A DNA stretch of 19,638 bases from a virus. This document shows positions 1-6,000 of the stretch, piece after piece; position 1 is the first letter of the stretch; each line of letters starts with the position of its first letter. The position numbers were made by a program. Where the stretch lies: the UHGV virus genome UHGV-0058544. The stretch is one strand, 5' to 3'.

Positions 1-3000
1 TTATCAATTTGTTGCAACGAACAGGTCACTATCAGTCAAAATAAAATCATTATTTGATTTCAATTTTGTCCCACTCCCTGCCTCTGTCATCACGATACTG
101 TGATGCCATGGTGTCCGACTTATGCCCGAGAAGATGTTGAGCAAATTTATCGCTTATCTGCTTCTCATAGAGTCTTGCAGACAAACTGCGCAACTCGTGA
201 AAGGTTGGCGGATCCCCTTCGAAGGAAAGACCTGATGCTTTTCGTGCGCGCATAAAATACCTTGATACTGTGCCGGATGAAAGCGGTTCACGACGAGTAG
301 ATGCAATTATGGTTTCTCCGCCAAGAATCTCTTTGCATTTACCAAGTGTTTCCTTCATTGATATCCCGAGAGCATCAACATGCAATGTTGTAGGGATGGC
401 AATTTTTACGCCTGTTTTGCTTTGCTCGACATAAAGATATCCATCTACGATATCAGACCACTTCATTTCGCATAAATCACCAACTCTCTGCCCGGTAACA
501 ACAGCCAGTTCCATTGCAAGTCTGAGCCAACATGGTGATGATTCTGCTGCTTGATAAATTTTCAGGTATTCGTCAGCCGTAAGTCTTGATCTCCTTACCT
601 CTGATTTTGCTGCGCGAGTGGCAGCGACCGGGTTTGTTGTTATATGGCCTTCAGCTATTGCCTCTCGGAATGCATCGCTCAGTGTTGATCTGATTAACTT
701 GGCTGACGCCGCCTTGCCCTCGTCTATGTATCCATTGAGCATTGCTGCAATTTCTTTTGTGGTGATGTCTTCAAGTGGAGCATCAGGCAGACCCCTCCTT
801 ATTGCTTTAATTTTGCTCATGTAATTTATGAGTGTCTTCTGCTTGATTCCTCTGTTGGCGAGGATTTTTTCGTAGCGATCAAGCCATGAATGTAACGTAA
901 CGGAATTATCACTGTTGATTCTCGCTGTCAGAGGCTTGTGTTTGTGTCCTGAAAATAACTCAATGTTGGCCTGTATAGCTTCAGTGATTGCTATCCTCCT
1001 GTCTCGGCCTAATCCAAACTCTTTACCCGTCCTTGGGTCCCTGTAGCAGTAATATCCATTGTTTCTTATATAAAGATTAGGGGGTAAATCCCGGCGCTCA
1101 TGACTTCGCCTTCTTCCCATTTTTGATCCTCTTCAAAAGGCTACCTGTTACTGGTCGATTTAAGTCAACCTTTACCGCTGATTCGTGGAACAGATACTCT
1201 CTTCCATCCTTAACCGGAGGAGGGAATATCCTGCACTCGCGTACCCATCGACGAACTGTTTCAAGGCTTCTTGGGCGTCGCTGGCGTGCGTTCCACTCCT
1301 GAAGTGTCAAGTACATCGCAAAGTCTCCGCAATTACACGCAAGAAAAAGCCGCCATCAGGCGGCTTGGTGTTCTTTCAGTTCTTCAATTCGAATATTGGT
1401 TACGTCTGCATGTGCTATCTGCGCCCATATCATCCAGTGGTCATAGCAGTCATTGATGTTCTCCGCTTCGATAACTCTGTTGAATGGCTCTCCATTCCAT
1501 TCGCCTGTGACCCGGAAGTACATTTATCATCTCCATAAAACAAAACCCGCCGTAGCGAGTTCAGATAAAAGAAATCCCCGCGAGTGCGAGGATTGTTATT
1601 CACCTTTGACGGCAAGTTGAAGGTTAGCCACGACCTTCCTCCTTTGGCTTGTGAATTTGTATCGTCATGCCGCTTTGAGTGGTGACTACAATGACAGAAC
1701 CAGGCTGAAGGCTGTTAAGATTGAATGCTTCGTAAAATGAATCCAATGCCAGTGCTTTTTTATTCTTTCGGTTCCACCAACGCCATCCCTTGCTACAGGC
1801 TACACTGACAATCCACTGTCCACTCCTGTAAGCCATATAAAACCAGATGAGCAAAACCTGAAGGAAGGCTATCCAGTCAATAATCGTATATTTCGCGAAG
1901 GAGTCCATCACTTCACCTCCTGCGGCGGTTCTGGTAGCGGCATCCAGTGGGTTACGAGAACATACTCGACATCACCCTCAGGACTGTCATAGAACAATCC
2001 AGAGTGGGATTCGTAGAATGCGATGTAACGCCACCCTGAATGAGTTTGAACAACAACTTCCTGCCTGTCGTCCGGCATTCGCTCACTACAGCTTATCCAA
2101 CCATCCGGAGTTACCGGAGTTGGTCCATCGAATTCGGGCATGTCAGGACCTTTTCTGATAGCTTTAGCCAGCTCCAGCGGGTCATCGTAAAGCCAGTCGC
2201 CAGTTTGTGGGTGATTTGCTTCTGCAAGCTGCGCAGCCCATTCAAGACCATCTTTTTGACCTTGGAGATAATCAAGCGGCAACTCTTCATGATTACTTGC
2301 AGGTTCTGCACTATCAGCTTCGCGCCGCTTCTGTAGCTCTGCTGCCATCGCTCTCACGACTTCAACTGGTGCCCTTGCAGCAAACTCTATGTTGGTGATC
2401 AGCTCATTAAGATATTGCTCGCTGGGATACTGTTTCTTATCGGTTATAGTGGTCATATCACTCTCCTTTGATGCGAATGCCTGTTGCAATGCTGTTTATG
2501 ATGCTGTCAGTGCATGGGGTAGAAAGCTGGGCATCTCCAGCAATTTTCATGACCTCAACATCTGCATATCGAATACCGAGGTGTATCAGACCGGCTATGC
2601 CTGACTTAAGCCGAGCATTTTCCATAAATAGAACTTTTGCCCGCTGTTTTTCTGCTTCAAGCTCAACGCGCAGCTTCCCTACCGTTAGCGCAATATCCTC
2701 GTTCTCCTGATCGCGGCTTTTGATGTATTGCAGGTTTCTTTCCCGTTCATCCAGCAGTGCCAGCACGGTAGCTGGATTGGCTGCGGCGATGAATTCAGCA
2801 TTGGCCTGCTGCTCCATTTGGAAATCTTCATAGAAACGGCTTTCTGGATGCGCTCCTTCAATTCTGCAAATGGGAATATATCCAGCAACTTCACGATGAA
2901 TTAGTGCATCATCACCATCAAATCGGCCATCTCCATATTCGAGCGACCACTCGCCACACGTTGCTTTCTCTGCCGCCTCACGCAGTGCCTGATAGTCAAT

Positions 3001-6000
3001 CTTGCTCACTGTTTGCCTCCTTTTCGAAGCTGGGCAGCGAACCTATCAGCTGCATCCGCGCAAGCAGAAGCAACGGAATCAAAAAATGGATCATCTCCGG
3101 TATCGCGCATCGTCAAAGCGAATGCCTCCACCCCTTGTGCCTGTATTTCTACAAGGTATGCCTTAGATGTAGTGCTTTTCGCCCCGCCTAATTCGTTATG
3201 AGCGATGTTCGCTATACATGCGATGTCTATATCTGGATGATTAATTGGGCAATGGCTAAGAATTGCCTCAAGAGCTGCTTTTTTGCTTTGGCATTCCGCC
3301 ACCATCGCCCCGCAATTGCTTTCATATTCGGCAATACGCTGTTTAGCAGCCTCCAGCTCAACACGCAGCTTCTCAAGCGTTAGAGCCATCTCCATGTTCT
3401 CTTCCAGCAGTTCAATCACATCAGGATCGCTATCATCAACTACTGTTATGCGCGATTTTTTGTAATGCTCGTCAGCATAAGTTCGTCCAGTTTTGAAGCA
3501 TCCGTCGTCCTCCATGCCGGAACAGGCATAAACAACATGTGATCCAGATATTCGCTGCATTGACATTTCCTCGCCACAAACAGAGCATTTAGGCGCTGGT
3601 TTCGGTGAAAAACGTTCACGTAACGTCTGATAGTAAAGCTCGCTCACTGGTTGCCTCCTTTGCGAATCTGTTCCGCCCATTCTTCAAGGGATTTCTCCGC
3701 ATATTCACCAGACAGGCCATCAATCGGATGCGGTTCATTAGCCAACTCTTCTTTCGCTGACAAAATCATGCGTGTAACGTCGAAAACTTCACGCAAAGAC
3801 TTATTGATAAATCCGTGATTGAACGCAGCAGCAAGACGGCTGGCGGCATAGTTAATCCCCTCGTTGCGTGCTTCCGCACGTACTTCAGCAAGGAAAGCGT
3901 CGGTGGCTGGGGTTTCAGTAACATCATCTTCCCATTCGCTAAACTCCTCACGACAAAAGTCATTAAATTCCTTCTCAGATTGCTTAAGCGAGGTATTTTC
4001 AGCAGCCATCTTCGCGCATTTATCCTCAAGGTTATCAATCGTGATTCCAGCAGAACGACACTCCCGCAACGCCGTTTCCAGTTTTGATTCAAGTTCACCG
4101 AACTTACGCACCAGATATTCAGCGTTTGTTTCGTTAACCTTTAAATCTCGTGGGATGCATTTACCTTTCAGAAAACCATCCATCTCAATTAGTGACATTT
4201 GTTTCATTTCTTCCCACTCCGCCACATCGCATTCAGATATTTGTTGTCATTAACTGAACCGAAACTATTTCTCTTAAGCAATTCCTCTCTCGATGGCATT
4301 GGCTTTACGCGTTGGCGAATAATCATTTCTGCCGGAAGAATGCCGGGATTGTATGCAAGTCCTCTCATGGTAAATTCCTCAGTCATTACTGATAGCGCCA
4401 TAGCGTGAGCGGTAATTACGCAGGCGCGGATCGATATATTCAGGGAAGTGGGTATATGTGGCTTTGCGGAATGGTCGGATTGATGTCTGGTAAATTCGCT
4501 CGCGTTCTTCTTTCTCTGCAAGCCATATACAATGGCGAAATTCCTTTTCCTCTTTCGTTTCCTGCGGTAGCGACATTATCAGGTCGTAGTTTTTTCTGAA
4601 TTTATCCAGCACCTCCGATACGGAATTGCCGGAACAGCGGCGCGCGTCGTCCGCACCATACAGAGGCGCTGGCATGATTTTCTCCTGATTAAATTGCGTG
4701 AATAGCGTGACGAGGGAAGGGGAGAGTTACTGGTTCCTCGTCTGGGTAGATAGGTTTGTTATGTTTGTGCCACTCGACATGACATGACTTGCAGAGCCAC
4801 ATCACATCGGTTGGTTTGCTGTAGTCGCAGTGGTGCGCCTGTGGTTTACATTCTGATCCGCAGCACTCACATTGTGGTGGTCGGATTAGCTTACCGTCGC
4901 GCAAAAAATTACCCACGATGATGTGGGCTTTTCTTTTCCATGGGTTGCTCTGAATGAACCGCTTTTTGGCTGCGTTACACCGTTCTCTGCCGCGTTCCGA
5001 TGATTGATATTCTCTCCTTGCTGATACTCGATGTGGCAATCCCGCGCGTTCTTTGTCGTATTCAGCCAGGCAAGCCCGGCAAGCGGCAGTTAATCCATCT
5101 CTGGATGCTCTTCTGATTTGAAAGTCCCTTTCTTCCTTCTGTTGATGGCATCTTGAGCAGATTTTCATATTCAGCTCCTAGAACGGAATATCCGAATCGT
5201 CGAAGTTCATAGGTGGTTCGCTGTGATTTCCATGCTGCTGAGGTTGCTGTCTTTGTTGCTGACCGTTATTTCGCTGAGGTGAAGACTGTTCATTGCCTCC
5301 TTGCTTGCCACCAAGCATTTGCATGGTTCCACCAACGCCTACGATAACTTCGGTAGTGAACCGATCCTGTCCGCTTTGATCCTGCCATTTTCTTGTCCGC
5401 AATTTGCCTTCAAGATAAACCTCAGAGCCTTTTCGCAGATACTCGCTGGCAATTTCTGCTAGTTTCCCGCTCATTACCACACGGTGCCACTCCGTCTGCT
5501 CCTTTTGCTCTCCAGTTTGCTTATCACGCCATTGTTCTGACGTAGCAACTGTAAGGTTTGCAAATGCCGTTCCTGATGGTGAATATCTGATTTCTGGATC
5601 ATGCCCAAGGCGACCAATAATGATCACCTTATTTACGCCTCTGCTTGCCATTTATGCCGCCTGTTTTAGTTCGTTAACTCTGATGTTCATTACCTGAACG
5701 CATTTAGCCTGCGCCTCCTCGTTGCCAGCCATTAATTGCCAGTCACGCTGATAACGCTCGATGAGTTTTTTCTTGTCAGTTTCTGTTGACGCATAATCGC
5801 TGAAGTCTTTCAGGATTTGTTCGCAGTTAGCCCCAATACTCCAATCACCAAATGGTCTGATGTTGCGCAGACGGCATCTTTCCTGAAAGACCTCGGCGTT
5901 AATGAAGGTGAAAACTATGCTGTAATGGATCCATGGTCTGCACAGCGACTTGCTGATGCGCAGACTGGTTTGCATGCTTCAGATCAATTGGTTCGTACTG

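Follow-up and report, generated by a model that had tools for sequence, protein, structure and literature searches.

The closest known counterparts of the genes considered here are the Ea22 proteins of phage lambda and of the Shiga toxin (Stx) phages, which are described as coiled-coil tetramers that favour lysogeny (PMC7093339, PMC10834534) and are built of a short N-terminal part, a long central coiled coil and a variable C-terminal domain (PMC10834534). All of them end in K/R-G-E, a feature whose significance Dydecka et al. called unknown (PMC7093339). The mosaics of temperate phages have been shown to arise mainly by homology-driven, divergence-tolerant recombination promoted by Rad52-like phage recombinases (De Paepe et al., PMC3945230), and conserved boundary sequences have been proposed as foci of homologous recombination (Susskind and Botstein, 1978; for HK620, Clark et al., 2001; both as cited in PMC3029335). 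Here we describe a locus of this kind in UHGV virus genome UHGV-0058544, in a stretch of 19,638 nucleotides (nt) that we refer to as the window. Positions 2458-4207 hold exactly three minus-strand genes, which we call, from upstream to downstream, C, B and A. We consider it probable that these are modular genes of the Ead/Ea22 type in the ea segment of the phage, and that the linkers at their junctions, together with a coiled-coil-coding segment inside A and B, mark sites of module exchange, most likely by homologous recombination.

With lambda and the Stx phages the locus shares the tripartite build of the encoded proteins and the position in the early-left operon (PMC10834534, PMC7093339), and with the P22-like phages (HK620 hkaE-hkaI, P22 eaD, Sf6) it shares gene order and orientation, between abc2 and xis/int. 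The order in HK620 is hkaE(DUF551)-hkaF-hkaG(Ead/Ea22-like)-hkaH-hkaI(DUF2737)-abc2, where hkaH is the counterpart of C: window positions 3875-4400 are 96.8% identical in HK620, the similarity ends at 3875, and hkaH continues into a different C-terminal half. HK620 differs further in that its one Ead gene has another C-terminal domain and in that it has no B cassette. The lambda and HK620 records each contain a single Ead/Ea22-like gene, whereas the window has two plus C.

Gene A (2458-3009, minus strand, GTG start) encodes a protein of 183 residues that ends in ...GIRIKGE, gene B (3006-3647, minus, GTG start) one of 213 residues whose coiled coil contains KLRVELEAAKQR and which ends in ...QLRKGGKQ, and gene C (3644-4207, minus, ATG at 4207-4205) an hkaH-like protein of 187 residues, called at the same length in public contigs, that ends in ...EQIRKGGNQ. 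A and B match the Pfam profile PF13935 (Ead_Ea22) with 121.6 and 49.5 bits, above its curated gathering score of 27 bits. The alignment of A with lambda Ea22 (45% identity between A 1-123 and lambda 1-78, E 5e-24) runs from MSxIxxQALREAAE... through LLDERERNxQYIKxRDQENEDIALTVGKLRVELE, and the two proteins part ways immediately past KLRVELE, so that A, read from its sequence, is truly homologous to lambda Ea22 in its N-domain and in the first part of its coiled coil. It differs in a 45-residue insert in the N-domain and in an unrelated C-terminal domain; their ...GIRIKGE ends are encoded by the same 21 nt. B, in turn, differs from lambda Ea22 in a Cys-rich N-domain and another C-terminal domain. 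It is 98% identical to an 'ead/Ea22-like family protein' at NCBI, and its nearest relatives all bear this name; many of them are 85-95% identical to just one half of B, and several have a DUF551 domain. C has no match in Pfam or NCBIfam scans and is tied to the family only through its B-type C-terminal domain and through phrog_368 (E 2e-36; its best PHROG match is phrog_614, E 1e-95), a family that matches all three of A, B and C. Homologs of C fall into at least 8000 clusters, and the exact A protein is present on 8 public contigs.

The preliminary description of this DNA had presented three or four adjacent paralogs with common features, a picture that did not hold. The N-terminus SxxxYQxLRE and the coiled-coil motif KLRVELEA(E/A)KQR are common to A and B (69 aligned residues with 38% identity in BLASTP) and absent from C, while the RKGG(K/N)Q tail is restricted to B and C, whose C-terminal domains align with a probability of 99.5% and an E-value of 2e-22 in hhalign. 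This alignment takes in both a TPATDAFLAEVRA(Q)GVE motif and the tail ...FAAQLRKGGNQ; in C the domain opens with the motif TPATDAFLAEVRAE (3872-3913, minus), which coincides with a cluster of breakpoints and has its counterpart in B at ~3129-3176 (KAYLVEIQAQGVE). BLASTP finds no similarity between A and C. Since A resembles B at the N-terminus and coiled-coil start, and B resembles C in the C-terminal domain, the three genes form a chain and are not equal paralogs. The supposed fourth member is the DUF551 gene downstream of A (1908-2456, minus, 182 residues; Pfam PF04448), whose product has no similarity to A.

At the DNA level, two repeat blocks stand out when the A and B regions are compared without gaps. 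One lies at the gene junctions (3004-3028 and 3642-3666), where the 25-nt repeat noticed earlier is present with 23 of 25 positions identical and extends to 55 nt (2978-3032 and 3616-3670; 45/55 identical). The other is internal, a 65-nt coiled-coil-coding block (51/65 identical) at 2642-2706 in A (ENEDIALTVGKLRVELEAEKQR, minus) and, as its counterpart in B, at 3337-3401 (ENMEMALTLEKLRVELEAAKQR, minus), where the variable C-terminal domain takes over from the N-domain and the first part of the coiled coil. This internal repeat had been noted near 2660 and 3354 and is real, except that its first copy reads aagctcaac and not cagctcaac. Each block scores 30, against 10.2 +/- 1.1 (maximum 14) in 200 dinucleotide shuffles, some 18 standard deviations above the mean, and a 20-nt core (up to 3 mismatches) has 2 copies in the window against 0 expected. 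No segment other than these two rises above the shuffle background in the same comparison.

The repeats had originally been attributed in part to tandem duplication, of which they would be remnants left by divergence in place. The genes are indeed adjacent and co-oriented, A and B have the family domain in common, B and C the tail, and the two repeats recur at similar spacings (638 nt for the junction, 695 nt for the internal block). Against this stands the lack of DNA similarity between A and B outside the two blocks, with no trace of whole-length resemblance; the N-domains are of different types, B having the Cys-rich insert, and of the 16 codons in the coiled-coil block that specify the same residue in both genes, 6 show synonymous differences. 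Most related loci have at most one Ead-type N-terminal motif, and only 8 of 176 have two Ead-type N-termini. Each gene also occurs without the others elsewhere: A in L002 (95.7% identity), B in L082 (99.3%) and C in L098 (97.8%). We therefore regard a tandem origin as very unlikely.

The junction repeat, which we call linker 1, has a precise anatomy. In the sense direction both copies read ...TTCG(C/A)AAAGGAGGCAA(C/A)CAGTGAGC..., with the ribosome-binding site AAGGAGG, a 6-nt spacer and a GTG start that overlaps the TGA stop, in agreement with the preliminary description. At the C/B junction (3616-3670, minus) the C tail ...QIRKGGNQ holds the AAGGAGG, followed by the GTGA overlap at 3647-3644 and the first codons of B; at the B/A junction (2978-3032, minus) the B tail ...QLRKGGKQ holds it, followed by the overlap at 3009-3006 and the first codons of A. 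In translation, AAA-GGA-GGC-AA(C/A)-CAG-TGA gives K-G-G-(N/K)-Q-stop. A third junction, absent from that description, lies between A and the DUF551 gene and carries a different sequence, linker 2 (ATTCGCATCAAAGGAGAGTGAtATG; 2454-2478, minus), which encodes the ...IRIKGE end of A: AAA-GGA-GAG yields ...KGE, AAGGAG stands 6 nt before the next ATG, and this ATG of the DUF551 gene follows the A stop after 1 nt (TGAnATG). The ribosome-binding site of the downstream gene thus lies inside the last codons of the upstream one, so that unrelated proteins share the same C-terminal peptide. The RKGG(K/N)Q tail common to B and C is, as its codons read, linker 1 translated, and the simplest explanation for the K/R-G-E puzzle of the Ea22 proteins would likewise be a translated ribosome-binding site of the next gene, with the Shine-Dalgarno sequence embedded in a gene junction that has been conserved.

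The ea22 gene of lambda (NC_001416 848-870, minus; L177) ends with the same 21-nt linker as A (ATTCGCATCAAAGGAGAGTGA). There it is followed by GATCGG and not by nATG, and the next annotated gene, ea8.5, lies 191 nt off; unlike in the window, no gene directly follows linker 2 in lambda. The embedded ribosome-binding site of lambda ea22 seems to be a remnant from a downstream gene that has since been lost.

The linkers could also be read as dedicated site-specific elements, such as the borders of integron-like cassettes or the targets of homing endonucleases, or else as recoding signals, with a frameshift at GTGA fusing C, B and A. The cassette-like slot that B occupies between direct repeats and a nearby open reading frame (ORF) of HNH-endonuclease-like type (4689-5168) fit the former, and a Shine-Dalgarno-like sequence ahead of a stop recalls the prfB and dnaX recoding sites. 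The linkers have no inverted repeat, however; no dedicated recombinase accompanies the slot from locus to locus, and many loci that bear linkers lack the endonuclease-like ORF. Integron-like or homing-endonuclease mobility was rejected on these grounds, and programmed frameshifting on the absence of a slippery heptamer before GTGA. RNA folding is no better than in shuffled sequences at C/B (z +1.1) and at A/DUF551 (z +0.2). At B/A (2960-3060, minus) it reaches -35.5 kcal/mol (z -2.84) and pairs the last codons of B with the start region of A, including the GTG and the ribosome-binding site; a strong fold at this junction alone does not support a conserved coupling hairpin as a general feature. 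Taken as a whole, we hold site-specific or recoding explanations to be extremely unlikely.

The spread of the linkers was followed through 175 related loci collected from IMG/VR with the A, B and C proteins as queries, which come largely from prophages of E. coli, Shigella and Salmonella and are not independent samples. Linker 1 is present in 158 of these 175 loci, with 180 copies in all, joining at least 6 unrelated upstream families, all ending in ...(R)KGGNQ, to at least 14 downstream families, among which, to judge from their N-terminal sequences, are putative methyltransferase-like and PAPS-reductase-like genes. Clustered at the DNA level, its flanks fall into 27 left and 21 right classes in 70 combinations, 15 of the left and 13 of the right classes having more than one partner. 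A second sample, drawn solely by an exact 18-mer of the linker, gave 122 junctions, with 6 classes upstream and 15 downstream, and Ead-type genes made up 56% of those that follow the linker; together the partner counts cover ~300 related phage contigs. Of the Ead-type gene starts, 99/158 are preceded by linker 1. Linker 2 occurs in 106 of 178 loci, 99 of its 107 copies being identical over 21 nt, and is nearly always followed by the nATG of one of many different genes; the GIRIKGE tail that it encodes is found on at least 7 unrelated classes of C-terminal domain. Both linkers are thus conserved at borders between otherwise unrelated genes, in the case of linker 1 in both samples, as are the lambdoid boundary sequences, short conserved module borders in unrelated contexts (as cited in PMC3029335). 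They differ from that description in their embedded ribosome-binding site and stop/start overlap, which fix the C-terminal peptide of the upstream protein. The HK620 study of Clark and colleagues is reported to have listed seven boundary sequences.

Comparison of the window with the same loci by BLASTN shows similarity edges at ~2450, 2640-2660, 2760-2810, 2960-3050, 3320-3340, 3401, 3610-3680, 3850-3916 and ~4090, with 93 starts of high-scoring segment pairs (HSPs) at 2640-2660. Between 2470 and 4190, 63% of 396 distinct HSP endpoints from the 175 loci, which are not mutually independent, fall in the four block copies or within 15 nt of them, against 21% expected by length; given this dependence, the significance of the excess is indicative only. 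The same coincidence of mosaic breakpoints with linkers and blocks is seen in individual loci. L082 carries window positions 3002-3676 at 99.3% identity, which is B with both its linkers in a different context, and L098 carries C in another context. In L093 the coiled coil and C-terminal domain of B (2969-3401, 92%) stand behind a different N-domain, with the breakpoint at 3401, and in L095 the N-domain and coiled coil of B (3327-3916, 96%) are fused to a DUF551 domain, with the breakpoint at 3327. HK620, L021 and L023 share 2650-3040 and then continue into other C-terminal domains (breakpoints 2647-2655), and in L002 the gene of the DUF2737 protein is joined by linker 1 directly to A, with neither B nor C. 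Across 138 proteins with KLRVELE we found 3 classes of N-domain combined with 13 classes of C-terminal domain.

The slot between C and A is equally variable. It is empty in ten loci, where a single linker joins C to A, and filled in others by inserts of 299, 644 or 1193 nt; in one of the empty loci (L099) the linker is the exact hybrid of the two linker 1 copies of the window. B would thus be, from this comparison, a cassette between two linker copies, in a slot that relatives leave empty or fill differently, and an exchange of modules at conserved boundaries is supported at the level of sequence. Of the preliminary description, the variability of the locus and the exchange of modules at the repeats are supported by these differences in module and slot content among relatives.

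The mechanism that we propose starts from three packed genes, presumably coupled in translation, each of which would encode a long central helix framed by a short N-domain and a variable C-terminal domain. Two kinds of repeat, the junction linkers that carry the ribosome-binding site of the next gene and the family-conserved coiled-coil-coding segment (KLRVELEA...), would serve as shared islands among the otherwise unrelated modules of lambdoid and P22-like phages and so mark the sites of exchange: whole genes would be swapped at the linkers, and N-domains and C-terminal domains at the coiled-coil segment. The likeliest route would be homologous recombination, by RecA or by low-fidelity phage recombinases of the Erf, Red or Sak4 type, between phages and prophages that share a host cell. 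The Erf recombinase (Pfam Rad52_Rad22) is encoded beside the ea region in those relatives of the prophage that are intact.

Several points weigh against this reading. The evidence for recombination is correlative, comes from related loci that are non-independent, and includes breakpoints that would be expected in part under any model to lie at conserved islands, since similarity ends where conservation ends. Within the window, the two copies of each block agree at only 78-82% of positions, their exact runs being 9-14 nt long, and would make a poor substrate for RecA, and the synonymous differences in the coiled-coil block indicate that there has been no recent exchange between A and B. A handful of alternative recurrent junction sequences account for about 37% of Ead-type gene starts, and the 299-nt cassette of L126 has linker 1 on one side only.

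Some of these same observations suit an explanation in which the blocks are conserved for function only, in ribosome binding, translational coupling or oligomerisation, and merely mark boundaries, the joints having arisen by random illegitimate recombination filtered by selection. The synonymous divergence of the coiled-coil block would then reflect conservation at the protein level, several junction types would be free to coexist, the one-sided cassette of L126 would need no special account, and flanking homology has been found at only ~30% of recent mosaics (PMC3945230). Yet a ribosome-binding site needs ~6 nt, while the spacer and neighbouring bases of linker 1 are more than 90% conserved over the 70 flank combinations, a figure owed partly to the construction of the search pattern. 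The identity of nearly all copies of linker 2 over 21 nt is likewise at odds with independent illegitimate joints, which would be heterogeneous, and the L099 junction is just the hybrid expected from a crossover between the linker copies of the window. We consider conservation for function alone unlikely, and exchange by homologous recombination at the blocks remains our preferred account.

For the proteins themselves, prediction agrees with the tripartite Ead_Ea22 build (PMC10834534), by AlphaFold2 (AF2) models for B and C and by the alignment with lambda Ea22 for A. The model of B has a helix at 75-132 followed by a small helical domain (predicted local distance difference test, pLDDT, 65.7; predicted template modelling score, pTM, ~0.3), and that of C a helix at 26-88 (pLDDT 84-92), again followed by a small helical domain (overall pLDDT 72.4, pTM ~0.3). 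Structure prediction thus recovered long helices in B and C, at moderate confidence, and Foldseek searches with both models against PDB and BFVD returned no match with E < 0.1, so that structure gives no functional lead. PDB sequence searches with A, B and C brought nothing meaningful, and NCBIfam and PADLOC scans of five to seven genes no matches. Given their homology with the Ea22 proteins of lambda and the Stx phages, A, and probably B too, would be expected to form coiled-coil oligomers that bias the decision towards lysogeny, with variable C-terminal domains engaging partners. The earlier statement that the function of Ea22-like proteins is unknown is right only in part, the lambda and Stx proteins being described as coiled-coil tetramers favouring lysogeny; on the function of A, B and C our searches taught us nothing new.

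Residues 21-42 of B (3521-3587, minus) contain near-invariant cysteines, C21, C24 and C42, and a conserved G-R-T-x-A-D-E-H-Y stretch. This pattern suggests a small zinc-ribbon-like insert, absent from A and lambda Ea22; AF2 confidence is low over it.

The locus is part of a leftward, packed operon with all genes on the minus strand, in the order ssb (5178-5651), the endonuclease-like ORF, abc2 (anti-RecBCD, 4379-4675), the DUF2737 gene (4204-4368, 54 residues), C, B, A, the DUF551 gene, a DUF4752 ORF (1624-1911; Pfam DUF4752, E 3e-36) and the integrase gene int (50-1120), the sole integrase gene in the window and that of the prophage. As the gene layout matches that of HK620, and as P22-like phages that infect E. 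coli and Shigella give the closest DNA matches (N7, IME10, Sf6, HK620, CUS-3), we place the region in the early-left (pL) operon of a P22-like (Lederbergvirus-type) prophage, where it forms the accessory 'ea' segment between the recombination and anti-RecBCD genes and xis/int, the position known for Ead_Ea22 genes. The stop of the DUF2737 gene overlaps the start of C (ATGA); elsewhere its product has the tail ...WRKGGNQ, and linker 1 then leads directly into an Ead gene (L002 and other phages). The DUF551 domain, in turn, is fused behind an Ead N-domain and coiled coil in other phages (L095; proteins with PF04448+PF13935), and phrog_60 covers both the DUF551 and the Ead-type parts. The endonuclease-like ORF encodes a Cys/His-rich protein of 159 residues that matches phrog_2340 ('endonuclease', E 3e-47) and, in its N-terminal part, the Lar-like restriction-alleviation family phrog_5558 (E 7.5e-07), with no match in a Pfam scan; unlike the window, HK620 has no such ORF between abc2 and ssb. 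A promoter scan of 1-6500 gave no promoter-like site inside 2458-4207, where the only terminator-like match (2526-2541) lies on the opposite, plus strand, and an Rfam scan of the gene region gave nothing. The exact array was located on 8 public contigs, and parts of the region are present in 3194 of 5426 E. coli genomes; none of the phage records or complete E. coli genomes reaches 80% coverage of it.

The prophage is a defective one: of Erf, no more than the final ~59 residues are matched by the ORF at 5652-5975 (phrog_1097, 193-251 of 251), and the 290-residue C-terminal part of a P22-type coat protein begins at 5817 on the opposite strand, the affected stretch being 5652-6689. Identity to intact relatives (L180) ends at 5827, with the joint at 5827/5828, and positions 1-9009 of the window are 100% identical to a metagenome scaffold from ENA (L178) with the same deletion. 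Everything between erf and the coat gene appears to be deleted in the window; in the P22 gene order this interval holds immunity, replication, lysis, terminase, portal and scaffold. A sar RNA (Rfam RF00262; 76.6 bits, E 1e-14) is encoded at 16295-16361 (minus); sar is known as an antisense RNA from the immI (ant) region of P22, which is consistent with a P22-like phage. Public contigs with the same array (L178-L180) have pectinesterase-family and aconitase-family genes beyond int, presumably akin to ybhC and ybhJ, which in E. coli lie close to the lambda attachment region; both are beyond the end of the window, in which no tRNA genes were found.

The array is real but ordinary: the gene family is familiar, the site is an established hot spot of mosaicism, and the proteins are already annotated in public databases. 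What we add is modest: an explicit description of two linkers, the observation that they join many gene families, and an interpretation in which the '+GE' and RKGGNQ tails are ribosome-binding sites that have been translated. Names assigned by similarity over the whole protein cannot be relied on at this locus: NCBI labels close homologs of C 'DUF4752 domain-containing protein', though Pfam DUF4752 matches the ORF at 1624-1911 and not C, and the remaining homologs are named hypothetical or ead/Ea22-like. The N-domain, coiled coil and C-terminal domain have separate histories, and proteins of the Ea22 family should therefore be compared domain by domain. The locus is a well-documented example of the reshuffling of accessory genes and domains in temperate enterobacterial phages, including Stx phages, with little import beyond careful annotation. 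A more far-reaching idea, which we regard as doubtful, is that the linkers are portable, selected, dual-purpose signals (ribosome-binding site, stop/start overlap and recombination site in one) that make the slot between hkaH-like and Ead genes a homologous-recombination cassette site, through which P22-like and lambdoid phages trade accessory cargo. If true, the tails of Ea22-type proteins, RKGGNQ and the '+GE' of Dydecka et al. (PMC7093339) alike, would be imprints of a nucleic-acid signal and not protein motifs.

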